From Dickeya dadantii NCPPB 898 (GTDB lineage: Bacteria > Pseudomonadota > Gammaproteobacteria > Enterobacterales > Enterobacteriaceae): a DNA stretch of 32,000 nt. The notes beneath the pieces are model-generated. The model was not told the origin of the DNA. It did not search any database and saw only the letters and a program-made list of their open reading frames with translations. The position numbers were made by a program, and so were the translations under genes. Of this stretch, positions 868-20,695 are shown piece after piece. The stretch is from assembly GCF_000406145.1 (NCBI RefSeq), contig NZ_CM001976.1:867260-899259 (forward strand), written 5' to 3'. Position 1 is the stretch's first letter. Every line of letters begins with the position of its first letter.

Positions 868-1598
868 TGAAAACTGTGTGGCTTGTCATCCTGCTGGCGT
901 TGCTGCCGCTGCGTCCAGCGCAGGCACTGACGGTATTTGATCCTGCCAACTATGCGCAGAACACGCTGAGCGCCGCCCGGGCATTGGATCAGATCAACAA
1001 TCAGGTCATCCAGTTGCAGAACGAGGCGCAGATGCTGATTTATCAGGCCCGCAACTTGACTAGTCTGCCGTTCACGGTAACCGATCAACTGCGTACCACG
1101 CTGGCGGGCACGGACCGGTTGATCGCCCAGGCGCGTGGACTGGCCTATGAGGTGCAGCGCATGGACTCGGATTTTGCGCGGCTCTACCCCGAACAGTATG
1201 CCGCCACGGTGGGCCACGATCGCCTGTATCAGGATGCCCGCGCGCGCTGGGTCAACACGCTGGCAGGCTTGCATACCGCTTTGCAGATGCAGGCACAGAT
1301 GGTGCAGAGCCTGTCGGCGGACGAAAGCACGCTGTCCGCGCTGGTCGGGCAAAGTCAGGCGGCCACCGGTGCCCTGCAGGCCATGCAGGCGACAAACCAG
1401 TTGCTGGCGTTGCAGGCGAAACAAACGATGCAAGGCCAGCAGCTCCAATTGACGCAGGACCGGGCGGTTGCGCTGGAGTTGGCGCGACAGGCAGCGGCGG
1501 TTGAACGCGGCCGGGAAATCACGCGACGTTTTCTGGGTACGGGAACCCCTTACACGCCGCAGCCGGTGAACTTTTACGGTAAGGACGGCGGTGAGTGA
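867..1598 (+). CDS. trbJ: TrbJ (VirB5-like) T4SS periplasmic protein
   Basis: The ATG at 867 overlaps the trbE stop (GTGATGA). The N-terminus is a signal peptide, MKTVWLVILLALLPLRPAQA. The mature part is coiled-coil rich (VFDPANYAQNTLSAARALDQINNQVIQLQNEAQML). The track ORF starts at 789, but the signal peptide favours 867. Confidence 0.8.
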   Translation: MKTVWLVILLALLPLRPAQALTVFDPANYAQNTLSAARALDQINNQVIQLQNEAQMLIYQARNLTSLPFTVTDQLRTTLAGTDRLIAQARGLAYEVQRMDSDFARLYPEQYAATVGHDRLYQDARARWVNTLAGLHTALQMQAQMVQSLSADESTLSALVGQSQAATGALQAMQATNQLLALQAKQTMQGQQLQLTQDRAVALELARQAAAVERGREITRRFLGTGTPYTPQPVNFYGKDGGE

Positions 1599-2761
1599 TG
1601 GACGATGTGTCGGTGATTGACCGCTTCCTCGATACCTTTTCGACCTACATCGACTCTGGGTTTGGGTTGGTTCGCGGTGAAGTCTCCTTTCTGACCGCCA
1701 CGCTGGTGGCGATCGACATGACGCTGGCGGGGTTGTACTGGGCGCTGTCGCAGGCGGGCGGGCAGGGAGAGGATGTGATGGCACGGCTGATCCGCAAGGT
1801 GCTCTATGTCGGCGCGTTTGCTTACATACTCAACAACTTCAACGGGCTGTCGGGAATAGTGTTTCGCTCATTTGCCGGGCTGGGCCTGCAGGCCGGTGGC
1901 GCGGCGTTGACTCTGGCGACGTTTTTACAACCCGGGCGGTTAGCCAAAACCGGTATAGAGACGGCTGCCCCTCTGCTGCATCAAATCGACCGCTTGAGTG
2001 GCTTCCCAGATGTGTTCATCAATATTGTGCCCGTCACCGTCATGCTGCTGGCCTGGTTGGTGGTGGTCCTGAGTTTCTTCGCACTGGCGATACAGCTGTT
2101 CGTCACGTTGGTGGAGTTCAGGCTGACCACACTGGCGGGGTTTGTGCTGGTGCCGTTCGCACTGTGGAACAAGACGGCGTTTCTGGCAGAAAAAGTGCTG
2201 GGTAATGTGGTGGCCTCCGGCGTGAAGGTGCTGGTACTGGCGGTGATCGTGGGGATCGGCACCGGTCTGTTCGGTTCGCTGACCCTGAACCCGGATGACC
2301 CGTCGATGGATCAGGCGCTGGTCGCCATGCTGGCGTCGCTTGCGCTGCTGGCCCTGGGGATTTTCGGACCGGGGATTGCCACCGGGCTGGTCAGTGGCGC
2401 GCCGCAACTGGGAGCCGGAACGCTGGCCGGAACGGCGCTGGGAGTGGCCGGCGTCGCGGCGGGAACCGGCGTGCTGGCGGGGCGGATAGGCAGTGCGGTG
2501 GGGGCCGGGGCGCGTCTGCTGCCGACGGCGTTACGCGGGCCGCAAGCCAATACGACCCCGTCGGCTACCGGACAACCGGGGCGGGAGGCCGGTTCATCCG
2601 GTTCGTCAGCCACGGCACAGCCGGACTGGGCGAAGCGGCTATATCGCCGTCAGCAACTGGCGCAGGCGGCGGGCACGGTGGCGCATACGCTGCGCAGTGC
2701 CGAGCACGGTGGCGGCAGCAGCGGCCCGACTCTGCGTGAATCCGACCGGGAAGGGGGCTGA
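1595..2761 (+). CDS. trbL: TrbL (VirB6-like) polytopic inner-membrane T4SS protein
   Basis: The start (GTG 1595 or ATG 1598) overlaps the trbJ stop. The protein has multiple hydrophobic helices and a Gly/Ala/Pro-rich C-terminal tail. It sits between trbJ and trbF. Confidence 0.8.
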   Translation: MMDDVSVIDRFLDTFSTYIDSGFGLVRGEVSFLTATLVAIDMTLAGLYWALSQAGGQGEDVMARLIRKVLYVGAFAYILNNFNGLSGIVFRSFAGLGLQAGGAALTLATFLQPGRLAKTGIETAAPLLHQIDRLSGFPDVFINIVPVTVMLLAWLVVVLSFFALAIQLFVTLVEFRLTTLAGFVLVPFALWNKTAFLAEKVLGNVVASGVKVLVLAVIVGIGTGLFGSLTLNPDDPSMDQALVAMLASLALLALGIFGPGIATGLVSGAPQLGAGTLAGTALGVAGVAAGTGVLAGRIGSAVGAGARLLPTALRGPQANTTPSATGQPGREAGSSGSSATAQPDWAKRLYRRQQLAQAAGTVAHTLRSAEHGGGSSGPTLRESDREGG

Positions 2762-2763
2762 CC

Positions 2764-3468
2764 ATGCGTTTTCGGCGACCGCAGGTGCACTACGGCGAAA
2801 CGCCATCCCCCGCCACGCCGTATCAGGCGGCCGCCGAGGTGTGGGATACCCGTATCGGCACCGCCCGGGTGCAAGCCAGGAACTGGCGATTGATGGCCTT
2901 TGGCTGCCTGCTGCTGGCGTTGCTGATGGCGGCCGGTCTGGTCTGGCGGGCGACGCAATCGGCTCTCGTTCCCTATGTGGTGGAGGTGGAGAAATCCGGC
3001 GAGGTGCGGGCGGTGGCCCCGGCGGTGACGACGTACCAGCCCAGCGAGGCGCAAATCGCCTACCATCTGGCGCGTTTTATCACGCTGGTGCGTTCACTCT
3101 CGCTTGACCCGGTTGTGGTGCGGCAGAACTGGCTGGAGGCCTATGCCTATACCACCGATCAGGGTGCAGCGGTGCTCAACGCCTATGCCCGCGCCCAAGA
3201 TCCCTTTGGCCGTATTGGTAACGAGTCCGTCACGGTGCAGATTGCCAGTGTGGTGCGCTCCAGCGATCGATCGTTTGAAGTGCGCTGGAGCGAACAACAC
3301 TTTGCCCAAGGCACTCCGTCGGAGACCGAACGCTGGACTGCCATGCTGACCGTTGTGCAGCACACGCCGCGTACCGAGCAGCAGTTACGGCTGAACCCGT
3401 TGGGCATCTATATCAACGGCCTGTCGTGGAGCCGGGAACTGGCGATGCCGGAAGGCGGCCAGCCATGA
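2764..3468 (+). CDS. trbF: TrbF (VirB8-like) T4SS protein
   Basis: The ATG lies 3 nt after the trbL stop. There is a single N-terminal TM helix (WRLMAFGCLLLALLMAAGLVW) followed by a periplasmic domain. The position is canonical for trbF. Confidence 0.8.
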   Translation: MRFRRPQVHYGETPSPATPYQAAAEVWDTRIGTARVQARNWRLMAFGCLLLALLMAAGLVWRATQSALVPYVVEVEKSGEVRAVAPAVTTYQPSEAQIAYHLARFITLVRSLSLDPVVVRQNWLEAYAYTTDQGAAVLNAYARAQDPFGRIGNESVTVQIASVVRSSDRSFEVRWSEQHFAQGTPSETERWTAMLTVVQHTPRTEQQLRLNPLGIYINGLSWSRELAMPEGGQP

Positions 3469-4363
3469 CAACGTGGCGGCATTACGGTCCTGGTCTGTTA
3501 CCTGATACTGGCACTGACCGGGTGTCGTGGTATGGGAAACCGGCCACCGGTCGTCGATCTGGACGAACCGGCTCCCACAGCCCCGGTTCCCGGTGCCACC
3601 AGCTTCCATAGTGGTGGGGAAGGGGGAGAACGGAGGGGGCGGACGAATGGGGAGCGAACTGTCGGGTGGTAATACCGGGCGCGCCGCGGATAACAGCGAC
3701 CTGTCGTCCTGGCGCTACGCTGAGGGGACGATGTATCGGCTTTATACGGCACCGGAGCGCGTCACCGTGATTGCCCTGCAACCGGGGGAAACACTGACAA
3801 ATGTGGCGGCCGGTGATACGGCGCGCTGGATTGTCGGCGATACCACCAGCGGCTCGGGCAGCGAACAGCGCGTCAATATCATGGTCAAGCCGGTGCGGGC
3901 CGGGCTGAAAACCAACCTGGTGATCACCACCAGTCGGCGGGTTTATCTGTTGCTGATGACCTCCGGCGGCACGCGCTGGATGGCGACGGTGTCGTGGCAG
4001 TACCCGGCCGACCCGGCGTCGATACCCTCACCAGCCACATCGCCCCGGTCACCGGAAAGCACTCTGGCACCGGACAGACTCCACTTTCGTTACGCTATCA
4101 GCGGTGATCGCCCGCCGTGGTGCCCCCGACAGGTGTTTGATGACGGGGAAAAGGTCTATATCCGGTTTCCGGCCGGTATCGCGCAGGGTGAACTGCCACC
4201 GCTGTTCGTCATCGGCCCACAGGGGGACGGACAACTGGTGAATTACCGGTTCCAGCCGCCGTACTACGTGGTGGACCGGTTGTTCGGGGCGGCCGAGCTG
4301 CGGCTGGGCAATGACAGCGCCGAGGTGGTGCGCATTACGCGTACCGACGGACGGAGCCCGTGA
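3465..4363 (+). pseudogene. trbG: TrbG (VirB9-like) T4SS protein, apparently split over three reading frames (frameshifted or affected by sequence error)
   Basis: The ATG at 3465 overlaps the trbF stop (ATGA), but that frame ends at 3611. The lipoprotein signal ITVLVCYLILALTGC and a Pro-rich linker are read only in the next frame (3481-3669). The conserved TrbG core (MYRLYTAPERVTVIALQPGE, ARWIVGDTTSGSG, VITTSRRVYLLLM) is in the third frame (3527-4363). Confidence 0.6.
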
Positions 4364-5604
4364 ATATGCAACCGGAATCACAGGCGGATAGCACGCCAGC
4401 ACCGTCAGAGAAGGTGGCCTCCGAGACACTGGTGCTGCGCAGCAGGCCACGCCCGGTGACCCGGCTGAACCGGCGCTCGCTGTTCATCCTGACCGGCGGT
4501 TTGGCGCTGGCGGTGCTGGCGGCGACGCTGTGGGCGTTACAGCGCCCCAGGCCGCATGATAACGGTGAACTGGCTGAACGCTATAACGTCGAGCGGGTGG
4601 CGAAAACCGAAGCACTGAACCGGTTGCCGGCGGATTACACCCGGTTGCCGACGAAACCTGCGGAGGTGACGCCTGTGTTGGGGCCGCCGCTGCCGGGGGA
4701 TATGGGGCCGCCCATGATCCGTGCCGCTAAGGCGGTCACACCATCCGGGCCAGATGCTTATGAGTCGGCGAGTCAGGCACGCCTGAAAGAAGCCGAAGAC
4801 GCCGCCGCCTCGCCGGTGTTCTTTCGTCGTGGCAGCCAGCCGGCACCACCACCGGCGTCCACCAGCCCATCTCCGGCCCCGATTGCGACTGACCCTATGG
4901 CCGAGCAGGGGGCGGTTTCCGGTATCCGGCAGGATCAGAAAGAGGCGTTCCTGCTCGGTGACATGACCGATACCCGAAATCACGGCGATCTGCGGCTACC
5001 GGCTTCGCCTTATCAGGTGATGGCGGGAACGGTGATTGCCGGGGCGCTGGTGACCGGTATTCGTTCCGACCTGCCGGGGCCGGTGATCGCCACCGTCACC
5101 GAACCGGTCTACGACAGCGCGACCGGACATTATCTGCTAATCCCGCAAGGCTCGCGCTTGCTGGGGAAATACAATAGCCAGGTCAGCTATGGGCAAAGCC
5201 GGGTTCAGGTGGTCTGGAACCGCATTATCCTGCCGGATACGTCATCGCTGACGCTGGATAATCTGGCCGGTGCCGACCCGGCCGGTTACGTCGGGCTGGA
5301 AGATCAGGTGGACTGGCATTGGGATCGTGTGATTGCCGGTGCAGCAATGACCACACTACTGGGGGTGGGAGCCGAACTCGCTGCCCCGGAGAACCGACAG
5401 CATGGCGATCGTATTATCCTTGCCGGACGTGACAGTTTGCAGGATTCGGTCAGTCAGGTGGGACAAGAGCTCACCCGGCGTAACCTCGATATTCAGCCGA
5501 CACTGACCGAACGGCCAGGTCTGCCGGTTCGTATCATCGTCAACAGGGATTTGGTGTTAAGGCCGTATCAACCACTGTTTTTTAATCAGGGGAGTGCACG
5601 TTGA
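4360..5604 (+). CDS. trbI: TrbI (VirB10-like) T4SS protein
   Basis: GTG 4360 or ATG 4366 overlaps the trbG stop. The protein has an N-terminal TM helix and a Pro-rich region. The conserved C-terminal domain reads YQVMAGTVIAGALVTGIRSDLPGPVIATVTEPVYDSATGHYLLIPQGSRLLGKY...VVWNRIILPD. Confidence 0.9.
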   Translation: MNMQPESQADSTPAPSEKVASETLVLRSRPRPVTRLNRRSLFILTGGLALAVLAATLWALQRPRPHDNGELAERYNVERVAKTEALNRLPADYTRLPTKPAEVTPVLGPPLPGDMGPPMIRAAKAVTPSGPDAYESASQARLKEAEDAAASPVFFRRGSQPAPPPASTSPSPAPIATDPMAEQGAVSGIRQDQKEAFLLGDMTDTRNHGDLRLPASPYQVMAGTVIAGALVTGIRSDLPGPVIATVTEPVYDSATGHYLLIPQGSRLLGKYNSQVSYGQSRVQVVWNRIILPDTSSLTLDNLAGADPAGYVGLEDQVDWHWDRVIAGAAMTTLLGVGAELAAPENRQHGDRIILAGRDSLQDSVSQVGQELTRRNLDIQPTLTERPGLPVRIIVNRDLVLRPYQPLFFNQGSAR

Positions 5605-5651: not shown

Positions 5652-6197
5652 TTATCTGGAACGGTAGCGTGCCGACACATCCCGGGCGGTATGCAATAGC
5701 CGTAAGATATGTACGTCGCCGCTGTGGCGTTTCAGCGCATAGACCAAAATAAACGGCAGCCGGGCCAGCACCAGTTTACGCCGTTCTCCCGATTTCCCTA
5801 TGCTGACGCCCGCTTCCGGGGTGGTTTCCAGCAACGCCACTGCGGCGGCGAATTTGTCATCGGTGGCATTGGCGACCTCCAGTCCCGCGTTCTGGTACAG
5901 GTAACGGTAAATGTCTTCGCGGTCAGCGATAGCTTGCCTTTCCCAGCGAACCGTTGCCGTCACAGTTCCCCCCGGGCGGCTTGCGCTTTCAGTCGCCGCC
6001 ATACGTTGACTGGCCTCATCATTGCTGATGAACTGGACCTCACCAGCATCGTAACGGGCGAAAGCCTCCTGAATTTTCGCTTCCAGCCATTCATCACCGG
6101 TATGGCGCTGGTACTGCCGCTCTTCCTCGGCCAGTTCTTCCGCACGCTGGCGCATCAGTTCGGTAAGACTGACCTGCTGACGCTCAGCAGCCTTCAT
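5652..6197 (-). CDS. ParE/RelE-family toxin-like domain fused in frame to an upstream ParD-like (stability-determinant type) antitoxin-like region
   Basis: This is one uninterrupted ORF (the track gives 5652-6299). The C-terminal half resembles ParE toxins (VRWERQAIADREDIYRYL...RKLVLARLPFILVYALKRHSGDVHILRLLHTARD). The N-terminal half resembles small helical antitoxins (WLEAKIQEAFARYDAGEVQFISNDEASQRM). No stop codon separates the two parts. The start is uncertain: ATG 6197, ATG 6290 or TTG 6299. An internal ATG at 6002 could initiate the toxin part alone. Confidence 0.6.
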   Translation of the reverse strand: MKAAERQQVSLTELMRQRAEELAEEERQYQRHTGDEWLEAKIQEAFARYDAGEVQFISNDEASQRMAATESASRPGGTVTATVRWERQAIADREDIYRYLYQNAGLEVANATDDKFAAAVALLETTPEAGVSIGKSGERRKLVLARLPFILVYALKRHSGDVHILRLLHTARDVSARYRSR

Positions 6198-6687
6198 AGC
6201 CAGTACGTTTGGTTTCCTCGTCAATTCTGAAGTGTATTGTCCCCATGACAGCCTCCAATAGATTGCATGTGTTGTCACTTGTGGTGTCATTTTATCCAAT
6301 CTCGTCAGTTTTTGCTGCTTTTTTGAAGGGGAGAATCGGCTTACCGTGTAACGCTGCTCTCAGGATACAGTGGCGGTTTTGTTGTAGAGGCTAGCATCTA
6401 ACATAATGTATATTAGCTCAGACCTGAACTGGCACTGTTTACTGCGCAGAACTAAACTTAATCTGACAGGCTGCTTTGTGCTAGGAGCGGGCATACAATA
6501 TCAGTCTAATTGGAATCGGAATTGCCGTTTTTAGCTACATCGACTTAGTGGACATCGAAACACGTATCAGTCAATTTCCCTAAAGCCAGCCCTTATACAT
6601 GGATGCATGGCATTAGCCTTTTCAGAGCTTGCGCTTTGGCAGTATCGCAGTTTCATAGGTTTTTAAAATAAGGGGTTAAGGGTACAG

Positions 6688-7956
6688 GTGTTGCTAATCA
6701 AATTCCTTCGAATAATGGCATACTTTCCCAACCATACGGCGAGTTTCCTTAAAACTTATAATAACTTTATGACGAATATTCCTGCTTTTAATGAGAAAGG
6801 GTATCTGCCAGAAGGCACCCACAGTTGTTCTGAGCAACAATTTATTGAGCGCTTCTGTACGATCAGCGAAGAACGCTCGGATCTAAAACAAGCATTTATC
6901 GATATTCTGGATTTCGCAAACACGCGCAATGCAATATGTGTTTACGTCGGCGGTTCTTATGTTACAAGGAAACAAAATCCAAACGATTTGGATGTCGTAA
7001 TCGTATTTCGGAACAAAGAGCACATCCCATCGAGATCTGAACGATGGATTATTGATGGAAAGCGTACAGATATTATGTTTTGCTCGGCTGACGATCCCGT
7101 CGTTACCGCGTCATTTATAAAACTGCTGTCTTTCGAGCGCTACGGCAGTAGCGTGGGTGTAATTCAAATCAATCTTGACCACACAGATGAACCGTGGACG
7201 ACTCATCATGAACCAGATGACAATACCTACGAAGTCATCAAAAGAACCTATTTCAACCGACATCTGGTCGACTTGAACAAGGCATCGGGGGTGCTGGTTA
7301 CTATCCACGGGATAATGACGCATGCGGAATGGAATGCGAATATTATCCCTATTGCGAGCAGTCAAGGGTGGATCGTCGCCCCTTACATTTACGGTTATAC
7401 CACTCCTGACATCCTTTTGAATAAAGGGAAACGAAAAGAAGCGGTGGACGCCTTTAGGGACTGGATTTATTCGATTAAGCAGGATTTTTGCCGGAACGGT
7501 GAAGCGATTTCAGTGATTGCACACTCCTTTGGAACCTATCTGATAGGTGCTTACCTTGATGGTTTCAATGAAGTTTCTCCGGTCCGTTTCAACACAATTA
7601 TTCTTACCGGCAGCATTCTGAATGAAGGCTATGATTGGGAAAGTTGTATCGGCTATAAAGTTGCGCGGGTCAGAAACGAAATAGCACCCAACGACCAGTG
7701 GGTAAGCTTGATGCAGAGGAATCCATCAGAATGGCTTGGCCTCGATCCACTCTTTGGCCAAGCAGGAGCAAAAGGCTTTACCTCTCAGAGTCGTATTCTT
7801 ACGCAGCACACCAATAAAATTTTCGATCACAATAATGTCATTAAAAAAGATGTCATAACATCAATGTGGATGCCGTTTCTGAACAGCAATAAGTACGCGT
7901 CAGATGAAGAATATTATAAGCGCTACATGGGGCATTCTAAAAATGGCGGCCAATAA
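6688..7956 (+). CDS. Fusion protein: N-terminal Pol-beta-superfamily nucleotidyltransferase (DUF6932/MNT-like) plus C-terminal alpha/beta-hydrolase (serine esterase/lipase-like)
   Basis: The N-terminal part reads FNEKGYLPEGTHSCSEQQFIERF ... VYVGGSYVTRKQNPNDLDVVIVF, which matches the hG[GS]-x9-13-Dh[DE]h NTase signature. The C-terminal part has an HG oxyanion-type motif (VLVTIHGIMTHAEW), a nucleophile elbow (VIAHSFGTYLIG) and later candidate Asp/His residues (APNDQW, FDHNNV). GTG 6688 is preceded by AAGGG; an alternative start is ATG 6769 (MTNIPAFNEKG). Confidence 0.7.
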   Translation: MLLIKFLRIMAYFPNHTASFLKTYNNFMTNIPAFNEKGYLPEGTHSCSEQQFIERFCTISEERSDLKQAFIDILDFANTRNAICVYVGGSYVTRKQNPNDLDVVIVFRNKEHIPSRSERWIIDGKRTDIMFCSADDPVVTASFIKLLSFERYGSSVGVIQINLDHTDEPWTTHHEPDDNTYEVIKRTYFNRHLVDLNKASGVLVTIHGIMTHAEWNANIIPIASSQGWIVAPYIYGYTTPDILLNKGKRKEAVDAFRDWIYSIKQDFCRNGEAISVIAHSFGTYLIGAYLDGFNEVSPVRFNTIILTGSILNEGYDWESCIGYKVARVRNEIAPNDQWVSLMQRNPSEWLGLDPLFGQAGAKGFTSQSRILTQHTNKIFDHNNVIKKDVITSMWMPFLNSNKYASDEEYYKRYMGHSKNGGQ

Positions 7957-8079
7957 TGAGGAAGCCAGACTCGCACGATTTCTTATGACCGGGATGAGTC
8001 TTTTCAGCAGATAACTGACCATTATTAATGAGAGGCTTCTGTCTAGCGATAATAGTGTTCACTCAACGTAAAGAGTAAT

Positions 8080-8982
8080 ATGACTAATAATCAGTTTTAT
8101 GAACTTTATAGTCGGCTTGCTGCATTACAAACCAGTAACGCTGATTGTCATCCCATTATTGAGGAGCTGACCCGGCTGTGTCTCGAAACAATTAGGAACT
8201 CCTCCTTGCAAGAATGCCTAGCGGTCGCAGCTCTCTGCTTCCGTGAAATTGGTCAGTCAGAGCAGCTTTTCACAGTAGCCCTAGCCTGCTGGCTTACCGA
8301 GGATAAATGTATCGACCTGGCAAAAGTGCTTACGCATGAAGCGAGTGTAAGCCACTTACAGGCAAACAGCCCAGTTGCGTATGATCTTTCTTCCACAGAA
8401 GAATCACGCGCCAGACTGGCAGCGTGCCGGCTTTGTGCACTTCATGTTTCTCCGGCGATATCCCTCGGCTGGACCTTAAGTCTGGCAACCTCCTTCCCTG
8501 CAAGCGCAACTACACTCAACACGGCTCAGGCGCTCCTGCAGCATCATATGAAGGATTATCCGTCGACCACGCTACGACTTCTTTCCAGCCCGAACTCCTC
8601 GTTTTCTTCATTGTTACTGGCGCAAACCGTGCTCAAACGACTGGAACAACAACGAAGCCATCTGAACGCACTGCCGAAACTTCGCGAGCTTGTGATGCCA
8701 CCTGAAATGCGCCTGATATACGCCAGTCTGAAGCGCAGCGAGAACCGGGATATTCAAAGGCAGTCAGAAGAAAAATCGATTTTTGACCAGTTCATCACCA
8801 GGCAGCATTTCAAGTACGCCAGTAAGACAGCTATTGAGGTTCTTACCGGCGATGATGTCAGGGAAACCACCCTGGAGATGATGCCATTTCAGATCGCGAC
8901 AGAGCTACCTTCGACCTGGCTTACCGATCCGGTTTCCGGAGACCTTGCCATGAACAGACAGTGGGAAGGAGTGTTGGAATGA
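8080..8982 (+). CDS. Hypothetical protein, 300 aa, no recognisable domain (composition suggests helical); translationally coupled to the next gene
   Basis: The ORF is clean, with an ATG start. Its stop overlaps the start of the downstream gene (ATGA at 8979-8982). I recognised no family. Confidence 0.6.
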   Translation: MTNNQFYELYSRLAALQTSNADCHPIIEELTRLCLETIRNSSLQECLAVAALCFREIGQSEQLFTVALACWLTEDKCIDLAKVLTHEASVSHLQANSPVAYDLSSTEESRARLAACRLCALHVSPAISLGWTLSLATSFPASATTLNTAQALLQHHMKDYPSTTLRLLSSPNSSFSSLLLAQTVLKRLEQQRSHLNALPKLRELVMPPEMRLIYASLKRSENRDIQRQSEEKSIFDQFITRQHFKYASKTAIEVLTGDDVRETTLEMMPFQIATELPSTWLTDPVSGDLAMNRQWEGVLE

Positions 8983-10658
8983 GCATTCAACTGGTTCTTT
9001 CTCATTATCTGGCCGGTCTGCGCGAGCGCAACGAGCTCGATGCACTGCTGCCTGAATTACTTAAAGCCATGGGGCACTCCGTGCTCAGCCGCCCGCAGAT
9101 TGGCCCAGGGCAGGCAGGCGTTGATGTGTTATCGACCAGACCGGATGGGAACGGTGTCGATGAAGTGTACGCCTTCATCATTAAATTTGGCGATCTCGGA
9201 CGTGCAGACTTTTATGGCGGTCAGCAGTCCATCGATCCGTCCGTGCGAGAAGCATGCACCGACTTCCTCCGAAATCGCCTGCCGGAACACCTCAAGCCTT
9301 TGCGCAAAAAGATTATTCTAGTGTCGAATGGCGTGTTGTTACAGGAAGCTCAGGCTGGCTTTTCAGCCCTGACGGAAGACGTCGCTGAACGGCCGCTCTG
9401 TAGACTCGAATTCTGGGGTAGCGATCAGCTCACACCCTTGATAGAGCGGTTTCTGTTCGACGAAACATTGCTGTTGGCCCAAGGAAAATCCGATTTGCGT
9501 GCAGCCCTTGCGGGTCTTGAAGAGTCGGGAGCAGCAATAGGTCGTTTCGTTCGCTTTGTTGATGCCTGTTTTGAATGCCCTACCGAGGAAATGAAGCAGA
9601 GTAAAGCAACGCGCAAGAAAAAGTTTTTGAGACGCTGCGCTGCAGCCGCTATGGGCTGGGCGGTACTACTAGTCTGGGGCAAAAGCGAGGGGAATCTAAA
9701 ACCTGGCGTTGTTACTGGGGAGTATTTGCTACTGCGCATGTGGGCCGAGGCGGTAAAACTTCAGCTAGATGCTGACCGCGCGTTTATCAACCGATTTGAA
9801 ACCATGGTGGACATGCAGACGCAGGCTCTGGTGGACTACTTTGAGAAGGTGATGCCCACACTAGAGATACCGCGTGCGGTCCTCTCGTATCGTCCGGAAC
9901 GCATCTTCTATCTGGAGCTTATGTTTGAGGAACTGGGACGCTTGGCCACCCTTCTGTTACTACTCCAGCGAAAACCCGATCAGGAGGAGTTTCGGACACG
10001 GATCCTGACGGCCATCATTCACCTGGTGAACCAGCATCCGGGTGTACGGCTTCCTCTGTATGACGGACATACCATTGACCTCACCCTGATCTTCTGTGCA
10101 CTGATGGGGGAGTCGGACTGGAGCAACACCCAGATTCTTGCTGGTGAAGTTGTCGCCCGGCTCCTCTGTGCACTGAAAACAGATTGCTACCTGCCTGTCG
10201 ACACCGACTCTCTGGAAGATGCCATCGCGCTCGACAGAGGACATGCCGCCAGCCGGGATTTCTTCCAGACATCAACGCTTGTACCGGCACTGGCTACTGT
10301 GGCGTCAGTGCTCGATGACGAAGAAAATCTTGAAGCCTTGCGCAGTCACGTGCTGCCATTGATGAAAGGAGTCACGCTTGAGCGCTGGTATCCCACTTCG
10401 TTACTCGAAACGCTCAGCGGATCACTGCGGGGGGTTCAGAGTGTCGGTATATCCAGAGCGCTGTCCGGACTCAGGCCTTCAACAAGGGAAGAGGCTGAGG
10501 CGTCAATTAAAACATTTGACGGTATGGCGTCCCCCTCGGACTTCAGATGGTCAGGTCGCTGGCAGGTGCTGATCGCGCTGTCAGCACGCCTGCATCGACA
10601 TCCCTTACCCACCTGGTTTATTGCTGAGTACAGGCGACCGGAACATTTCACTGAGTAG
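8979..10658 (+). CDS. Hypothetical 559-aa protein with an N-terminal Mrr-like / PD-(D/E)xK restriction-endonuclease-like domain and a long unassigned C-terminal region
   Basis: The ATG at 8979 is preceded by GGGAAGGAG. The N-terminus reads LDALLPELLKAMGHSVLSRPQIGPGQAGVDVLS...EVYAFIIKFGD...KKIILVSNGVLLQEAQ...LEFWGSDQLTPLIERFL. This follows the Mrr_cat pattern (helix, G-x-D, x-x-K, core strand, trailing helix), although the usual E/Q-x-K reads I-I-K. Confidence 0.65.
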   Translation: MSIQLVLSHYLAGLRERNELDALLPELLKAMGHSVLSRPQIGPGQAGVDVLSTRPDGNGVDEVYAFIIKFGDLGRADFYGGQQSIDPSVREACTDFLRNRLPEHLKPLRKKIILVSNGVLLQEAQAGFSALTEDVAERPLCRLEFWGSDQLTPLIERFLFDETLLLAQGKSDLRAALAGLEESGAAIGRFVRFVDACFECPTEEMKQSKATRKKKFLRRCAAAAMGWAVLLVWGKSEGNLKPGVVTGEYLLLRMWAEAVKLQLDADRAFINRFETMVDMQTQALVDYFEKVMPTLEIPRAVLSYRPERIFYLELMFEELGRLATLLLLLQRKPDQEEFRTRILTAIIHLVNQHPGVRLPLYDGHTIDLTLIFCALMGESDWSNTQILAGEVVARLLCALKTDCYLPVDTDSLEDAIALDRGHAASRDFFQTSTLVPALATVASVLDDEENLEALRSHVLPLMKGVTLERWYPTSLLETLSGSLRGVQSVGISRALSGLRPSTREEAEASIKTFDGMASPSDFRWSGRWQVLIALSARLHRHPLPTWFIAEYRRPEHFTE

Positions 10659-10872
10659 CTGACCAGTTCCCCGTAGAGCAACACGCGTCAATGTTAGGGT
10701 CTGTCCCTTAACCTCCCTACACGCTAAAAAGTGCTGCAAGAATCATTTCCGAGATTTGATTTTTGGTTAAATATCCGTCTATTTTGGTCATTCTTTATCG
10801 CTTAAAAGCGTTTTTTTGCACAGTTATAGCAATGCTGAACTGTACAAAAAATAGTTACGGGACACAGCCTAG

Positions 10873-10936
10873 TCATACCTTCATACCTTCATACCTTCAT
10901 ACCTTCATACCTTCATACCTTCATACCTTCATACCT
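10873..10936. repeat. Perfect tandem octanucleotide repeat, (TCATACCT) x 8
   Basis: Counted directly: eight contiguous identical 8-bp units from 10873 to 10936. The repeat lies in the 464-bp spacer between two convergent genes. Confidence 0.95.
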
Positions 10937-11080
10937 ATGCGAGAACTTTCGCTTCATGCCCTGAGGTATTCAGCAAGCTTTTTATGGCTTCAGTAAGGGC
11001 GATTTCCTCTGTCCAAGTGCCAACAAATATCTCGCTTTGCTATAACGGGTTTTGGTCTTCCAAGAGTGATAAATAATTAT

Positions 11081-11116
11081 CCCCTGCTCAGCTATATTAA
11101 AGAAGGAAAGCAGGGG
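11081..11116. terminator. Hairpin between convergent genes, a possible terminator
   Basis: CCCCTGCT (11081-11088) pairs with AGCAGGGG (11109-11116) across a 20-nt loop. On the + strand it is followed by CGATTTTTATTT, and on the - strand by ATAATTATTTAT. It lies just 3' of the NACHT gene stop. Confidence 0.35.
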
Positions 11117-11122
11117 CGATTT

Positions 11123-14100
11123 TTATTTACTACACTTAGCGAATCTGTCTTCTAAAGATTGGCGCAAAGTTTTAAGTTCCCTGACTGATTCAACAACCTG
11201 AGGTGTTGGGGAAGGTTTTCTTGCCTTCAAACACATAGGTCTTAGTTTATCTGGATTTTCACCAGCATAATTTTCATGTCGTAAAAAACTCATGATAAAA
11301 CTTGAAAAGGAACGAATTGAATGCGTATTACTAATCAAACCGTCATCATGGTGAAGCCAGAAAATCAGTTGCTCATAACTTTCGGCAGAGTAGAGAATTG
11401 ATAAATCAGAGATTTGCTTATTTTTTTCATCTCTCAACTTAAAAGCTGAATCTTTATTCATCACCCTAATTCGTTTGTAATTAGCCAAAAAATTAAAAAC
11501 AATATATAAGTAAAAAATCCCAATGACATTAACTAACCCTATCAAGAAGATGATATTTAAAGTCACCTCACCCAAGTCAAAAATATGTGCAGGGATAAAC
11601 TTTTTGACCAGCCAGCACAAGCTATACCCCAGCGCCAAGCAAATTGATAGAAAAACAGCCCCAAAAAAAATTAAAATAGTTGAAGCTTTCAAAAAAACCT
11701 TGATATTTAGATGTTTGATAATCCAGATCATAACATCATGAAATTTAATCTTCTTGCCTTGATGGCGAACCAAAAAAGGAGAAAACATAATAATAACTAG
11801 CAATATCAAAAGTGAAAATAAAATAAAAGATATTACTGTTAAGTTTGTTGGTTTGTTTACTAAATTTACTGTAATTATAATCCAAGAGGCCAGCAGAATC
11901 GCGAAAGAAAACGTGAAATCTATTTCAATTTTTGAGCTTTGGTAATTATTTTTAATGTGCCTTAACGAGTGTCGTGGTAGCATATCCATTGCAACAAGCA
12001 TTGAGTTTGCTACAGTGGTAATAATAGAAAAGGGGTTAATTAATAAGAACCGTGGTAGAGATTTTTTGAAAAATTCAAGGTTGTTTCTCAAACGCTTACC
12101 TCGCGAGACAACAATATTTGCCCCCATATCTGAAGGTAACCTCGCCGCCAAAGCTTCAATAGTTAGTAATTCCTCTCTATTTTTAGCGAGTATAACTTGG
12201 TCTGAGAGCATTCTCAAAACAACCGCTCTTGCCTCGTCTGGAAGCTTAGAAGCAAATGCCGCTTGCCTGAAAGCATTTTGCCGCTCAGATTTTGTACCAT
12301 GATTGAACGTCTCTACAAGACAGGCAACTAAAGTATCCTGTGGCAAAAGCCCACCTAAACGAAGTACCTCGCATCGATCCCATGAATCGCCTTTTTCCCA
12401 ACGAGGCATTAGAAACTTAGACGCAGCCAGAGAGAGGTATTCAGGTACGTCATGAATGCGATGAGCTAGTCCTTCCTGTAGCAAACTAAGAAGAGGAATT
12501 GCCTTTTCAGAGGTCCAGTCAAAATAGATCAAATCTTCTGGAAGAGGGGGAGTCCCACAGTGAGTATATTTATTTACCGTACAACTTTCTTCCAGTATGA
12601 CACTGGCTTGCACTAAGATGCTGTTTATTGCTTCAAAACTACAGGTTTGCAAAAGCGTAACAGTGTATTCACGCCAACGGTCCTGTGTAAGAAGCTCTGT
12701 CGCTGAGAGAATATTCGGGTGGCCTGTAAGGTAGCGGACAAATAGAGCTTCCTGATAACGACGGTGAGCAAAAGCAAAACGACGGTCGCCCGGAGCTGCA
12801 TTAGGAACATCGGCCCTTCCAATTTTAGAATCAACTAGTGCAGAAATGAGATTCTCAAGAGATTTCCCAGGAAGCTCTTCATTTTTTAATTTCACCCGTA
12901 TCTGGTCGAGAGAAGGTGCCAGACTCAATGTATCATCTTCTGCAAATAGCCTGGCTAAGCGCTCGGCCCCGATGATCAGTTCTTCAGGATTTAACGTATA
13001 CTTACGAAACAAATAATCTGGTTCACGTTTTGCCAGCCTTTCAATATGCTGCAGCAATATGTCATGATCGTTACTAGGAGCATGTTGCTCATCCCTGACG
13101 TATCGGCACAGTAGTGTTAAGAATAGTGGTGTTGAACCTATACTGCTATGAGAGCCAGCAAGGTGTTGACGAACCAAATTCATATGTTCTTCTTTAAGGA
13201 AAGAATTACGTATCAGTTCATCTTGCTTATCCCCACTCAGTGGTAGAATCCTCAGTTTTTTCCAGGGGAGAGCTTCAGGGCCTTTAAATTCCCGTGATGC
13301 TAATATCCCTTTGCATTCTCCCATGCCCTCCAAGAACTGCCTGAGTGCTTGAGAGTAACTTCTTATTATGTTGTCTCCACTTACCGAATGGAGAACGGCG
13401 GGAATTTCATCAAATGAATCAAATAGGAATAGCCATAATCCTCTGTTACAGTAGTCGTCCCAGTTTTCTTTAACAAATGCTGAAGTATCAGCATCTCCTC
13501 GACGAATATTATCGAGTATGAATTCACGCACGGTATCCACGTTTACTGCATCAGCATTACTGAATTCCATCTCACGAAGGTTGATATAAAGCGGGACTGT
13601 TGCATTTTTATCATTTGATTTTTTACCTTGCTCAGCTAACTGCTTTGCAAGATGCCGTAATGCCACACTTTTCCCTGACCCAGGTTCACCGACCAGTTGC
13701 ATCGCACGCTCAGTACTGGATGTGATGGCTCGAACAAGCGAGCGTTCCTTACGTAATCCAAAAGATTTTTTTCTGCGCAACTTGTCTATGGCAGAAGCAT
13801 AATACCCTCCCTCAGATTCCACCTCAGCTTCAAGGTCAGTAAAATATTGATCATTCCAGTTTTCTGCTTTAGCCAAATAAGCAAGGTCTGCTTCAAGTAC
13901 TGCACAAAATTGCTTTCTTCTTCTAACTCTTTTTTCATTGTCTTTGCTTAACCAAACAGGAAGGCCACTGGTTTTGTATATCTCAATGAATTTTATGAGA
14001 AGCTCAATTACTTCCCCAAACGATTTTAATAAAAATATTACTATACATCCCCCTATTGTAATAATAAATAAAGCCAAAATCAACCAGTGCCATATATCTT

Positions 14101-14194
14101 GAGATGTATTATTAGACCATAATGAATTAAATATTCTTTCAATGATTTCCAATCCTTTTTCTGAAATGCTAACTGATTCATCTTCTTTTGCCAC
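11123..14194 (-). CDS. Membrane-embedded NACHT/STAND NTPase (1023 aa): N-terminal TM helix, NACHT module, helical repeat region, four C-terminal TM helices and a ~120-aa tail
   Basis: Motifs present: Walker A LVGEPGSGKSVALRHLA, VPLYINLREM, Walker B LWLFLFDSFDEIP, GILASREF...LRILPLSGDKQDELIRNSF, and winged-helix-like RRFAFAHRRYQEALFVRYL. Hydrophobic helices are WHWLILALFIITIGGCIVIFLL (aa ~35-57) and four more at aa ~755-904 (FAILLASWIIITVNLV, VISFILFSLLILLVIIMFSPFLV, ASTILIFFGAVFLSICLALGYSLCWLV, VTLNIIFLIGLVNVIGIFYLYIVFNFL). Confidence 0.85.
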   Translation of the reverse strand: MAKEDESVSISEKGLEIIERIFNSLWSNNTSQDIWHWLILALFIITIGGCIVIFLLKSFGEVIELLIKFIEIYKTSGLPVWLSKDNEKRVRRRKQFCAVLEADLAYLAKAENWNDQYFTDLEAEVESEGGYYASAIDKLRRKKSFGLRKERSLVRAITSSTERAMQLVGEPGSGKSVALRHLAKQLAEQGKKSNDKNATVPLYINLREMEFSNADAVNVDTVREFILDNIRRGDADTSAFVKENWDDYCNRGLWLFLFDSFDEIPAVLHSVSGDNIIRSYSQALRQFLEGMGECKGILASREFKGPEALPWKKLRILPLSGDKQDELIRNSFLKEEHMNLVRQHLAGSHSSIGSTPLFLTLLCRYVRDEQHAPSNDHDILLQHIERLAKREPDYLFRKYTLNPEELIIGAERLARLFAEDDTLSLAPSLDQIRVKLKNEELPGKSLENLISALVDSKIGRADVPNAAPGDRRFAFAHRRYQEALFVRYLTGHPNILSATELLTQDRWREYTVTLLQTCSFEAINSILVQASVILEESCTVNKYTHCGTPPLPEDLIYFDWTSEKAIPLLSLLQEGLAHRIHDVPEYLSLAASKFLMPRWEKGDSWDRCEVLRLGGLLPQDTLVACLVETFNHGTKSERQNAFRQAAFASKLPDEARAVVLRMLSDQVILAKNREELLTIEALAARLPSDMGANIVVSRGKRLRNNLEFFKKSLPRFLLINPFSIITTVANSMLVAMDMLPRHSLRHIKNNYQSSKIEIDFTFSFAILLASWIIITVNLVNKPTNLTVISFILFSLLILLVIIMFSPFLVRHQGKKIKFHDVMIWIIKHLNIKVFLKASTILIFFGAVFLSICLALGYSLCWLVKKFIPAHIFDLGEVTLNIIFLIGLVNVIGIFYLYIVFNFLANYKRIRVMNKDSAFKLRDEKNKQISDLSILYSAESYEQLIFWLHHDDGLISNTHSIRSFSSFIMSFLRHENYAGENPDKLRPMCLKARKPSPTPQVVESVRELKTLRQSLEDRFAKCSK

Positions 14195-14898: not shown

Positions 14899-15663
14899 CT
14901 ATAGTAGATAAGGCCTTCTGCGCTTTTCTGCCAACGCATCCGCCTGACTAAGATTCACTCTTATGCGGCCATTAAAATCCCCGCCATTCAGCCAGGAAAA
15001 CAGGCAGGCATCAGTACGCTGAATAAACGGATTAAGTTCGATCAACATTGTGTCGTATTGTCCGTTCTGATGGGTAATTGCGATATCTGCAACAACACTA
15101 TCCATATGTAGTAACGGTATCAATTTTTGCAGAAACTGAATGATTTGTTGGCGTATTTCATCGGCATGTTCGGTTAAGAAAGGAAAATATTCCAGACAAT
15201 GATATTGGGATACACCGACGACGTTACCATCCTTTATAAAGCACCTGAATTCGCTCCATCGTGGAATATCATGCCATCCCCGCAAAAATAGCCAGGCTGG
15301 TGTTGATGATTGCAGACAATCCCAAAGATAGGATGCCACTCGATGACTGGAAACAGACAATTGCCTGATCACGTCATCCACGCTGTTGGCCCGCGGAATG
15401 GTTGCTTCATGATAACTGACACCACCAAATCTCACGAAAACCGGCGTAGTAAATTTCGACAATATATACTCGATATCATCGCGTAATTGTTCAGAAAATA
15501 GTGGCTTTTCCAGTAATCGTTTCGCATCCATGAACTCGCTAGTACAAGCACCGATCGCTATAACGTCCCGTTCATGAAGCTCAATGCCTTCGCTCTGGAA
15601 AGAAAGCGTCAAAAGCGTTTCCGGCCAGTTTTCGATAAAAGTCTGTTTGTGCTCAGTGTACAT
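14899..15663 (-). CDS. Cdc123/D123-family (R2K clade) ATP-grasp protein
   Basis: It aligns by eye to eukaryotic CDC123. [14 protein letters not shown] matches [45 protein letters not shown] matches [50 protein letters not shown] matches WLIDFNPFGEVTDSLLFTW. Confidence 0.8.
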   Translation of the reverse strand: [254 protein letters not shown]

Positions 15664-15711
15664 ACCAACTCAGCCTTGACGTTATAATGTTATTGCGCCT
15701 GCGTACCAAAA

Positions 15712-16236
15712 TTACAACTTATCTTCTGACGTTGGTGTGTATAGAAATTCTTTTAGCGATAGAGCTAACAATCCTAACCCATCACCAACCGATAGATTGT
15801 CGATGTAATATCGCCAGTGAAATACACTTTTATATGTTGGGGAGTTGGGTCTTACGTCGTATATAATATATGCATCACCATCATCGTCATAGTCTGAACC
15901 AATTGCGATAAGACCAGTCGGTAATAGTGATCTGTTTTCGTATATTGATTCTTTTAAAAGATTAGTCGAGCTGATTACCTGTTCTGTGGGGAATAAGATA
16001 GCCATTAATGCTTTTCTCACTCTTCCATCATACCGCACTAAAAAATGATCTATATCTTCTAGCGGACCGCAAGCTTGATCGGCAACCAGATGAATATAAT
16101 CTTTATATTCATCTGGCAAGTGAACCTGAAGTTTTTCTTCGATATCCCCGATTCTTTTGTTGATCGTTACAGATTCAATAACTAAATCAGGATCATCCGT
16201 TTCCCACTTAACCAAATCTTCTTTCTGTATTTCCAT
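15712..16236 (-). CDS. SMI1/KNR4 (SUKH-superfamily) immunity protein
   Basis: The ATG at 16236 lies 1 nt after the toxin stop (TAG 16238-16240). It carries the SUKH-type motif IEEKLQVHLPDEYKDYIHLV. It sits immediately 3' of the nuclease effector. Confidence 0.7.
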   Translation of the reverse strand: MEIQKEDLVKWETDDPDLVIESVTINKRIGDIEEKLQVHLPDEYKDYIHLVADQACGPLEDIDHFLVRYDGRVRKALMAILFPTEQVISSTNLLKESIYENRSLLPTGLIAIGSDYDDDGDAYIIYDVRPNSPTYKSVFHWRYYIDNLSVGDGLGLLALSLKEFLYTPTSEDKL

Positions 16237-16237
16237 A

Positions 16238-17203
16238 CTAAAAATCCTCGCTGCGCCACATTGAGTCACCGCCTACATGTGGTGTTCCACTATTTACACT
16301 ACCTGTTTCACTATTTTTATATGCAGTGTGTATATCTTTGTCGACTAAGCTCATTGTAACGCCATCCGGTTCATGGTGCCATGTGCCAAGCCGCTCTTGG
16401 TCTTTAGGTAGTTTTTTGCCGTATTTTTCTGAAAAGGCATTTCTTGCTGAGCTGAAATCGCTTCCATTACCTTTCATATCAATTTCTACTTGATAGGGCT
16501 TGCCCCCATCACCGATGGGTTTGCCATCTTTTAATGGTGGGAAACCTGAAAAATCGGGGTGTCCGTCTTTGAAAGGAACACCTTCTTTGCCATGGCGTGT
16601 AACCACTTCATAGAGACTTTTATTCTTCTCTGGATCAGGCTTGTACATACCCGTACCGGGTGGGCAGGGTTTACCATCAGGTCCCACCCAACTCCCTTTT
16701 TCGGAGGAGGGGAGGCGTCCTGGATCCATTGATTTATCTTTCTCAAATTTTTCTTTGGCCAGTTTTTTACATTCTTCTGTTTTACATTTCCCCAGCTCTT
16801 TATCCAGTTTTTCCTGCTTTCTTTTTGCTATTAGCTCTTTCCAGTATTTCTTGGCGTTTTCCCGTGTTGTCGCAAATACTTTTGTATTCAGGGCTGCTTT
16901 GGCTTTCGACAGCGCAGCGGTGACTTTTTCCACTTTTGCCGCGATTTTTCCAGCTTTAGCCCCATCACCCAGTATCGGGATAAACCCTAAAGCATCAAGG
17001 GCGGCTCCGCCCCAGTCACCTTTAAATAATGAACGTCCTAACGATACGACGTCCGCCGCCGTACCAAACGGCGGTGGCGCAGCCCCTGCCGCTGCCAGAC
17101 CGCTATCCACGATCAGGTCGTTATATTGTGACTCCATATCCATCACTTTTTTGCGATCGGCTTCGATCTCCGGGCTTTCGCTTCGCGATCTGATATTCGC
17201 CAT
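16238..17203 (-). CDS. T6SS polymorphic-toxin effector: Gly/Ala-rich pre-toxin N-region plus C-terminal WHH-type HNH/EndoVII nuclease
   Basis: The C-terminus reads GTWHHEPDGVTMSLVDKDIHTAYKNSETGSVNSGTPHVGGDSMW, i.e. W-H-H ... H ... H-x-GG. The N-terminal region reads DVVSLGRSLFKGDWGGAALDALGFIPILGDGAKAGK. The gene lies downstream of vgrG and DUF4123 and upstream of the SUKH gene. Confidence 0.75.
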   Translation of the reverse strand: MANIRSRSESPEIEADRKKVMDMESQYNDLIVDSGLAAAGAAPPPFGTAADVVSLGRSLFKGDWGGAALDALGFIPILGDGAKAGKIAAKVEKVTAALSKAKAALNTKVFATTRENAKKYWKELIAKRKQEKLDKELGKCKTEECKKLAKEKFEKDKSMDPGRLPSSEKGSWVGPDGKPCPPGTGMYKPDPEKNKSLYEVVTRHGKEGVPFKDGHPDFSGFPPLKDGKPIGDGGKPYQVEIDMKGNGSDFSSARNAFSEKYGKKLPKDQERLGTWHHEPDGVTMSLVDKDIHTAYKNSETGSVNSGTPHVGGDSMWRSEDF

Positions 17204-17231
17204 GGCTTTCTCCTTTGATGGTCTAACCGGT

Positions 17232-17618
17232 TCACTCCGGAAACCAGTAATTCGGGTGACTCTTCATAACGGCATCTGCACCTTGATCTTCGCTGACGTC
17301 GGTGAAGAGTGCCTCCAGCCGCTCATCTTCACTCCGCTCTGTATCCGTAAGGATTTGCTTAAAGCCATCAAATTCAAAGAAGTTCGATCCGATACCCCAC
17401 ATGAAATACAGGAATTTCGCCTGGTTAGTCGGCTTGTGGATATTGAGTTTTTTAGCGATTTCCCTGCCATTCAGCGTCATCGTATACAGCGTTTCCGGCG
17501 TATGCCCTTGCTTGTGTTCCGGCAGCGATGCTTCCATCACCTCGTCGACAAACCATCGGGAGAAGTCTTTATCGCTCATCAAATGCGATTCCATTTGCAG
17601 GTCGTCAAAGTGCCACAT
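17232..17618 (-). CDS. Hypothetical 128-aa protein between the DUF4123 adaptor and the effector (possible co-chaperone or accessory)
   Basis: The ATG at 17618 is preceded by AGGAG at about 10 nt. It overlaps the 3' end of the DUF4123 gene by 14 nt. I recognised no family. Confidence 0.5.
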   Translation of the reverse strand: MWHFDDLQMESHLMSDKDFSRWFVDEVMEASLPEHKQGHTPETLYTMTLNGREIAKKLNIHKPTNQAKFLYFMWGIGSNFFEFDGFKQILTDTERSEDERLEALFTDVSEDQGADAVMKSHPNYWFPE

Positions 17619-18216: not shown

Positions 18217-18230
18217 GGTTAGCTCCCTGC

Positions 18231-20540: not shown

Positions 20541-20659
20541 CCTGCTTCCTCCTTTCCCCGGCTCCATAGCTACCGCACACCCGGTCTGTGCCGTGTGTCA
20601 GTGCACTATCACAATGAATGCGCCTGCACTCAGAGATGGGCACACCATCGCTCAGCGCA

Positions 20660-20695
20660 GACAAAAACAGAAAAACCCGGACCGGAGTCCGGGTT
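20660..20695 (-). terminator. Rho-independent terminator or attenuator between hcp and vgrG
   Basis: The minus strand reads AACCCGGAC-TCCG-GTCCGGGTT followed by TTTTCTGTTTTTG. It begins 9 nt after the hcp stop. Confidence 0.7.

Follow-up and report, generated by a model that had tools for sequence, protein, structure and literature searches.

Two overlapping genes of Dickeya dadantii NCPPB 898, read in a 32,000-nucleotide (nt) stretch of contig NZ_CM001976.1 (positions 867,260 to 899,259; this whole stretch is termed the window here), encode an OloA and an OloB protein, the two components of the defense system Olokun. The locus does not represent a new kind of system; rather, it is of this known kind, with half of OloA and an OloB from a deep, separate clade. 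We consider it probable that it is a compact, short-OloA subtype of Olokun that acts as a nuclease complex on phage DNA. Olokun is credited in the literature to Millman et al. 2022; the name is absent from the Millman 2022 preprint, in which the system could not be located. Both genes are labeled hypothetical in every annotated record inspected (Dickeya, Escherichia coli, and Klebsiella, including Klebsiella IncF conjugative plasmids), among them D. dadantii entries 100% identical to both proteins, and no description of the short subtype or experiment on it was found in the literature searched.

Assignment of the gene pair to Olokun

The family assignment comes from the PADLOC profile models. 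The downstream protein matches the OloB model PDLC03926 (E = 1.1e-83, 280 bits; residues 4-478 on model positions 2-480 of 556), and the upstream protein matches the OloA model PDLC03925 (E = 6.1e-16; residues 54-292 on model positions 343-587 of 596), a match that spans 41% of the model and covers its C-terminal ~245 positions. Pfam and NCBIfam returned zero matches for either protein. A preliminary description of this DNA had stated that no named system fits the pair, which is wrong because the PADLOC OloA and OloB models match both of its proteins. In an alignment of 28 OloB proteins, the Dickeya OloB lines up collinearly with its canonical counterparts from one end to the other. The locus has an OloB-family protein with an OloA-family protein directly upstream on the same strand; what it does not have is a full-length OloA of ~580 to 700 amino acids (aa) with a HEAT/adaptin-like N-terminal half, the partner being 300 aa long. 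Judged by sequence, this shortfall is the feature that makes the Dickeya locus a variant.

The anatomy of the pair (Table 1) is that of a tightly coupled cassette. The two open reading frames (ORFs) share an ATGA stop/start overlap, and a Shine-Dalgarno-like GGGAAGGAG lies inside oloA ahead of the oloB start, both as initially described. An alternative GTG start for oloB at 8961 in the program-made ORF list would give 565 aa; the ATG at 8979 (559 aa) is the better start because homologues open with MSIQLVL there and the 4-bp overlap is kept in 29/29 loci of the short type. The base composition of the pair also departs from that of its AT-richer flanks, as had been noted, with a guanine-plus-cytosine (GC) content of 52-55% across 8200-10800, against 42-45% upstream (6200-8400) and 31-42% downstream (10600-12400). 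A promoter/terminator consensus scan found none on the + strand near the pair, with counts no higher than in shuffled sequences. Both proteins have many full-length homologues, and the pair is adjacent every time, which goes beyond chance; the earlier expectation that it would be conserved as a pair holds.

Short and long forms of OloA

The upstream protein had been regarded as an orphan; instead, it is one of a family of proteins of ~300 aa that share homology with the C-terminal module of canonical OloA. This family counts 80 homologues, falling into ~35 clusters at 50% identity. When its profile was run against the long partners in the fetched loci, only their C-terminal 100-250 residues were matched, with E values down to 7.5e-17. 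An exhaustive search with a hidden Markov model across 1.84 billion representative proteins gave 270 matches at E ≤ 0.001, of which ~35 are full-length ~300-aa proteins (E < 1e-30), followed after a gap by proteins of 560-690 aa matched at their C-termini only; the best of these long matches aligns query residues 12-286 with residues 355-632 of a 649-aa protein, i.e., nearly the whole short protein. Taken together, the profile and exhaustive searches place the short partner on the C-terminal 150-280 residues of the long ones, and OloA-short therefore corresponds to the OloA C-terminal module. The N-terminal half that is absent here is where long OloA shows weak HEAT_2 matches, in agreement with the published designation of OloA as "adaptin-like" (bioRxiv 10.1101/2025.07.10.664194).

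The AlphaFold2 (AF2) model of OloA-short (predicted local distance difference test score [pLDDT], 84) is an all-alpha repeat with a low-confidence hairpin at residues 252-263 and two terminal helices. A Foldseek search of this model against the PDB gave insignificant matches of the ARM/HEAT/TOG type only (best E = 0.18), and its sequence profile recovered nothing meaningful from the PDB. Conservation lies beyond residue 53 and is strongest at residues 195-296, the region that is also best shared with long OloA. The module retained in OloA-short is most likely the OloB-binding or regulatory part of the protein because it is the only one common to all OloA proteins that has been kept; by the same comparison, the N-terminal HEAT-repeat half of canonical OloA would be dispensable in the short clade.

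The division into short and long forms was seen when a profile of the Dickeya OloB was run against one genome per species (185,579 species), which yielded 75 loci, and the gene upstream of oloB was read in each. In the short type, OloB is 47-81% identical to the Dickeya protein and the partner is 288-325 aa long in 29/29 loci, all with a 4-bp stop/start overlap. In the long type, OloB is 24-32% identical to the Dickeya protein, so that 32% to 47% is an empty interval between the two clades; the partner is 576-698 aa long in 27 uninterrupted loci, with a few reading shorter, and the overlap is usually 4 bp. The short type occurs in Enterobacterales, Pseudomonas, Betaproteobacteria, Xanthomonadales, and others, and the long type in Aliivibrio fischeri ES114, Acinetobacter, Shewanella, Paenibacillus, cyanobacteria, Rubrobacter, and others. 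On the strength of these profile matches, the long group is canonical Olokun because A. fischeri ES114 matches both PADLOC models, OloA with 418 bits over positions 7-594 of 596 and OloB with 684 bits. Two short-type loci, L016 and L030, resemble the Dickeya pair in this respect and score 55-62 bits for OloA, on model positions ~302-588, and 240-260 bits for OloB, aligned over model positions 2-549 and 2-553, respectively.

The Dickeya pair shares with canonical Olokun the gene order oloA-oloB with overlapping stop and start codons, an OloB built of a predicted N-terminal nuclease domain and a helical C-terminal domain, a homologous OloA C-terminal module, the lack of a nucleoside triphosphatase (NTPase) motif, Walker A being absent from both proteins, and a location in mobile or defense islands. 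It differs in its OloA of 300 aa, as against 576-698 aa, in which the N-terminal half is absent.

Some loci call for separate mention. Tahibacter aquaticus DSM 21667 has two short-type loci (L027 and L028) on different contigs, each with an OloB 48% identical to that of Dickeya. OloA ORFs of intermediate length, 401 aa (L065, 5799-7004) and 430 aa (L076, 5712-7004), were read in Alishewanella and Acinetobacter lwoffii, and an OloB ORF shortened to 332 aa in Giesbergeria (L032, 7001-7999). These odd lengths may reflect frameshifts, pseudogenes, or alternative starts.

An OloA of half the canonical length, matching 41% of the PADLOC model, could also be read as the remnant of a decayed canonical Olokun that lost the 5' half of oloA and is no longer functional. 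We regard this as extremely improbable. The short proteins form a coherent family of ~300 aa, with the 80 homologues and ~35 clusters given above; the start and the 4-bp overlap are kept in 29/29 loci, from Enterobacterales to Xanthomonadales and Betaproteobacteria; and the upstream DNA varies between loci and holds no remnant of an OloA N-terminus. The OloB proteins of Dickeya and E. coli ET350 are 80% identical, against 75% for the nucleotide sequences, which is consistent with purifying selection. Because this family is coherent and widely conserved, and its start and overlap are fixed, decay is effectively refuted.

The N-terminal domain of OloB

OloB has at least 232 homologues. Its AF2 model (mean pLDDT, 87) comprises a mixed region over residues ~1-160, a helical region to ~460, and a mixed C-terminal region. 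The preliminary description had proposed that the protein opens with a PD-(D/E)xK-like region followed by ~390 further residues of unassigned sequence. The predicted topology of the opening region and the helical nature of the remainder agree with this, but the fold matches are below significance. The sequence blocks on which that proposal was based fall on regular elements of the model: LLKAMGH is the end of the helix at residues 17-30, GVDVLS the strand at 50-55, VYAFIIK the strand at 61-69, IILVSNG the strand at 110-116, and LEFWG the strand at 141-146. Residues E16, E19, L20, D21, G42, G47, V48, D49, K69, G118, and W146 are invariant in the N-terminal domain among 28 OloB proteins of both clades, and the same residues are invariant in a set of 36 N-terminal domains.

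The structural matches in BFVD point in the same direction. The best domain-sized Foldseek matches there (140-150 columns) are two phage "restriction endonuclease" proteins (probability 1.00, root mean square deviation ~4 Å over 142-147 columns, E 0.07-0.17), along with an endonuclease I-like protein, RPB5, and UL24, the E values of the domain-sized matches ranging from 0.02 to 0.6, below significance. These proteins (the restriction endonucleases, the endonuclease I-like protein, RPB5, and UL24) belong to the restriction-endonuclease-like fold class. When full-length OloB was compared with the PDB by Foldseek, each of the top 50 matches was of the TPR or helical-repeat kind and fell on the C-terminal domain (best E = 0.05), which masked the nuclease domain; sequence profiles of the N-terminal domain and of full-length OloB recovered nothing meaningful from the PDB. 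On this evidence, the case for a PD-(D/E)xK-type fold in the N-terminal domain is good but not conclusive.

The more specific proposal that this domain is Mrr-like found no support at the sequence level. Mrr_cat was matched by 1/36 family members, at E = 0.023, and the Dickeya OloB has no Pfam match. An hhalign comparison of the N-terminal domain with the E. coli Mrr family gave a probability of 0.12% and E = 0.47, with alignment confined to the G-x-D...V-Y block; as the Mrr alignment was shallow (≥70% identity), the negative is a weak one. OloB resembles Mrr (PF04471) in a similar predicted alpha-beta-beta-beta-alpha-beta core, in the G-x-D at strand 2, in the Lys ending strand 3, and in a defense role. 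In contrast to Mrr, the acidic or amide residue of (E/Q)-x-K is hydrophobic or Ser in OloB, which also lacks the winged-helix DNA-recognition domain and instead has a partner protein and a ~390-aa helical domain.

In the Dickeya protein, this motif reads I-I-K, from which it had been suggested that the domain may be inactivated. Of the 28 aligned OloB proteins, 27 have I, V, S, T, or K at residue 67 and the remaining one has F; this residue is never acidic, canonical OloB included. The I-I-K reading is common across the family, and it is therefore no evidence of inactivation at the Dickeya locus. Comparison of the sequences suggests that the acidic ligand is most likely supplied by the E16/E19/D21 cluster on the preceding helix. 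The absent (D/E)-x-K acidic residue, Ile here, together with the lack of a match to any nuclease Pfam model and the sub-significant structural matches, would also suit a catalytically dead DNA-binding or DNA-sensing module, with the pair acting as a sensor or scaffold or in element maintenance or exclusion. This seems to us quite improbable: residue 67 is non-acidic in all OloB proteins, including those of canonical systems reported to cleave DNA, and D49, K69, and the three acidic residues of the helix are strictly invariant across phyla, which a dead site would hardly explain. Moreover, some active PD-(D/E)xK enzymes, such as Cfr10I and NgoMIV, take their acidic residue from another structural element.

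The predicted nuclease domain is also the most conserved part of the pair. Compared with L016, it is 64% identical, against 50% for the helical domain of OloB and 31% for OloA; this gradient fits an effector that is conserved and a partner that evolves faster.

Proposed mode of action

The mechanistic data found for Olokun come from work on PfOlokun (bioRxiv 10.1101/2025.07.10.664194). Each operon in the panel tested there, that of Olokun among them, protected against one or more phages. The PfOlokun proteins form a ~278-kDa complex, modeled as a 2:2 assembly of OloA and OloB in which the two PD-(D/E)xK domains are adjacent. It degraded genomic DNA of T7, SECphi17, and SPO1 but not that of E. 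coli, nicked plasmid DNA, and was active at high protein concentration only. Mutation of the OloB active site broke the OloA-OloB complex. A sequence search of the PDB found no solved Olokun structure. The 2:2 masses of the long-type pairs are 267-293 kDa, whereas that predicted for the Dickeya pair is 193 kDa; the measured ~278 kDa fits the former and not the latter, and the characterized system is therefore of the long type.

By analogy with the long type, we infer the following course of events. As oloA and oloB are translationally coupled, the helical OloA-short and the nuclease OloB would be made together and would assemble as a hetero-oligomer, the simplest being a 2:2 complex of ~193 kDa. 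Assembly would set two OloB nuclease domains side by side, with OloA-short contributing the module that binds or regulates OloB. Once a phage infects, the complex would cleave the invading DNA and spare that of the host, catalysis by the N-terminal domain depending on D49, K69, and one acidic residue from the E16/E19/D21 cluster. In such a scheme, Olokun would resemble other PD-(D/E)xK-based defense effectors that work as oligomers with helical accessory parts, such as Shedu (PD-T4-8) and the Hachiman pair HamA-HamB, in which a nuclease effector of this type is likewise governed by its assembly with further, helical or accessory, parts and in vitro cleavage is concentration dependent, as it is for Olokun (bioRxiv 10.1101/2025.07.10.664194). 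However, no sequence relationship to either was found, PADLOC matches being to the Olo models only, and Olokun has no helicase or NTPase partner.

Several observations weigh against a short-OloA nuclease complex acting on phage DNA. The evidence for a nuclease fold does not reach formal significance (Foldseek E values of 0.02-0.2), matches in the PDB are to helical repeats only, and no sequence profile ties the N-terminal domain of OloB to a characterized nuclease family. Even for the canonical system, catalysis by OloB residues is not cleanly shown, given that the OloB mutation broke the complex. The Dickeya OloB shares only 22-25% identity with canonical OloB and belongs to a separate clade, and the published mass of 278 kDa fits the long-type pairs and not the Dickeya pair. 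With half of OloA absent, the trigger, the regulation, or even the target could differ. Finally, the survey of neighborhoods described below is descriptive rather than a statistical test of enrichment.

The difference in OloA could go further than size. The short-OloA clade may be a functionally distinct, minimal Olokun that has kept a minimal OloB-activating module and perhaps responds to another trigger or target, such as conjugative DNA, or to phage without the sensor half. We put this forward tentatively, as a somewhat unlikely extension of the compact Olokun subtype preferred here.

Mobility and genomic neighborhood

Homologous loci were surveyed descriptively for their neighbors. Integrases, DNA methyltransferases, AbiU2, MkoC, insertion sequences, and transfer genes are found around them, with housekeeping genes at the island borders; such surroundings fit a location in defense or mobile islands. 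A tblastn search placed OloB on 36 plasmids, 18 of them conjugative, while the same type of search against phage genomes found no homologue. These results bear out the initial impression that the pair sits among mobile-element and defense genes. On a Pseudomonas chromosome, the pair lies behind type IV secretion system (T4SS) genes; parAG and umuD flank it on the IncFII plasmid pKp1050-2 of Klebsiella; and in E. coli ET350 (L001) the same pair, of 903 and 1680 nt, occupies an integrase-bounded island beside a CHAT-domain protein and an AAA/PLD pair. Upstream of the pair in the ET350 island (L001, 1158-9821) are the CHAT protein (763 aa), an AAA-domain protein (1156 aa), and a phospholipase-D-like protein (584 aa); the island also has genes of the CP4-57 type (AlpA, YeeU/CbtA) and is dense and defense-like.

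No neighbor family within 5 kb is common to more than 3/31 short-type loci, and for this reason neither the DUF6932/hydrolase gene (422 aa) upstream of the Dickeya pair nor the CHAT gene of ET350 was accepted as a third component. The two-gene cassette is self-contained.

The association with mobile elements, where the cassette is found on conjugative plasmids and integrative and conjugative elements (ICEs) beside partition and toxin-antitoxin (TA) genes, raises a further explanation, namely, a TA-like or abortive-infection system in which OloB is a latent nuclease toxin restrained by OloA-short. When a phage infects or the element is lost, OloB would be set free, host DNA would be degraded and the cell killed or arrested, and the plasmid or ICE would be stabilized by the same arrangement. 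Coupling between the genes is tight and the smaller protein is encoded first, OloA evolves faster than OloB, and the disruption of the complex by an OloB mutation indicates that the proteins are closely interdependent (bioRxiv 10.1101/2025.07.10.664194). Nevertheless, we hold this explanation to be improbable: the intact OloAB complex is reported to be the active nuclease, to leave E. coli genomic DNA uncut in vitro, and to do no more than nick plasmid DNA (bioRxiv 10.1101/2025.07.10.664194), an OloA of 300 aa is large for an antitoxin and lacks a DNA-binding autoregulator domain, and neither protein matches a TA family in Pfam, NCBIfam, or PADLOC. The preliminary description had offered a defense or toxin-immunity pair; the two-gene defense-type cassette is there in the form of Olokun, and toxin-immunity is not favored over phage defense.

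In the window, the T4SS genes, a ParE gene, the DUF6932/hydrolase gene, the Olokun pair, a gene for a NACHT NTPase, and an orphan effector cluster of a type VI secretion system (T6SS) all lie on the 3' side of ssrA, the transfer-messenger RNA gene (tag ANDENFAPAALAA), which adjoins smpB. Islands classically integrate on this side of ssrA. An integrative conjugative island located at the 3' end of ssrA probably carries the short Olokun pair of D. dadantii as cargo.

The other genes of this region merit brief description. In the 215-aa ORF with ParE, the toxin domain occupies residues 117-207 only; the stretch N-terminal to it could be an antitoxin gene of its own that the ORF call merged, or the ORF may encode a fused antitoxin-toxin. 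The 422-aa protein encoded directly upstream of the pair is a fusion in which a DUF6932 domain and its nucleotidyltransferase-like region (PF22014, E = 2e-20; weak matches to Polbeta and NTP_transf_2) precede an alpha/beta-hydrolase-like C-terminal half. Its match to PDC-M63A, a PADLOC candidate, is weak (E = 4.5e-9). As other loci do not conserve it with the pair, its gene may be a candidate defense gene in its own right. A perfect tandem repeat occupies the convergent intergenic stretch between oloB and the NACHT gene. The NACHT NTPase (PF05729, E = 1e-9), encoded in DNA of 31-46% GC, has several hydrophobic, apparently membrane-spanning segments in its C-terminal ~300 residues and weakly matches the NCBIfam model of the antiphage protein EruA, at 26 bits, far under the cutoff. 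The T6SS cluster includes a DUF4123 chaperone in addition to the components listed in Table 1.

Table 1. Features of the Olokun pair and of its surroundings, in window coordinates
Feature	Position	Strand	Description
oloA-short	8080-8982	+	ATG start; 300 aa, 33.7 kDa; predicted all-helical repeat protein; homology to the last ~250-280 residues of canonical OloA
oloB	8979-10658	+	559 aa, 62.7 kDa; predicted N-terminal nuclease domain and C-terminal helical domain (AF2)
ATGA stop/start overlap, oloA/oloB	8979-8982	+	ATG 8979-8981 over TGA 8980-8982, read in the sequence
Shine-Dalgarno-like GGGAAGGAG inside oloA	8963-8971	+	AGGAG ends 7 nt before the oloB ATG
OloB residues 1-165, putative restriction-endonuclease-like (PD-(D/E)xK-type) domain	8979-9473	+	AF2 alpha-alpha-beta-beta-beta-alpha-beta-alpha-beta-alpha
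OloB residues 166-559, predicted helical-repeat (TPR-like) domain	9474-10655	+	AF2 helices 167-462, pLDDT mostly above 85
E16 codon	9024-9026	+	Acidic cluster (E16, E19, D21) at the start of the helix preceding strand 1; candidate metal ligand
E19 codon	9033-9035	+	Same cluster; candidate metal ligand
D21 codon	9039-9041	+	Same cluster; candidate metal ligand
D49 codon (GVD motif)	9123-9125	+	Candidate catalytic Asp, start of strand 2 (AF2)
K69 codon	9183-9185	+	Candidate catalytic Lys, end of strand 3
T4SS genes	10-5604
ORF with ParE toxin domain	5652-6299	-	215 aa
DUF6932 protein gene	6688-7956	+	422 aa
Tandem repeat (TCATACCT) x 8	10873-10936		Perfect repeat
NACHT NTPase gene	11123-14194	-	1023 aa; converges on oloB
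T6SS orphan effector cluster	14899-21222	-
D123/ATP-grasp R2K	14899-15663	-	T6SS cluster
SUKH-family immunity protein	15712-16269	-	T6SS cluster
WHH/colicin-DNase C-terminal toxin	16238-17203	-	T6SS cluster
VgrG	18231-20567	-	T6SS cluster
Hcp	20704-21222	-	T6SS cluster
ssrA	22006-22386	-	Transfer-messenger RNA gene
smpB	22437-22919	-

Implications

Olokun is a validated defense system whose mechanism is barely understood, with one preprint providing stoichiometry and in vitro DNA cleavage. A subtype that is naturally shortened and yet conserved widely shows which portion of OloA cannot be lost, and its smaller complex (~193 kDa if 2:2) would be useful for structural and biochemical work. Recognizing the cassette as Olokun improves censuses of defense systems and helps to interpret phage resistance among plant-pathogenic as well as clinical Enterobacterales, and it allows better defense annotation of the plasmids and ICEs of this order. 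Should the short-OloA clade indeed be a minimal Olokun, it would offer the simplest handle on how Olokun senses infection and discriminates phage DNA from that of the host.

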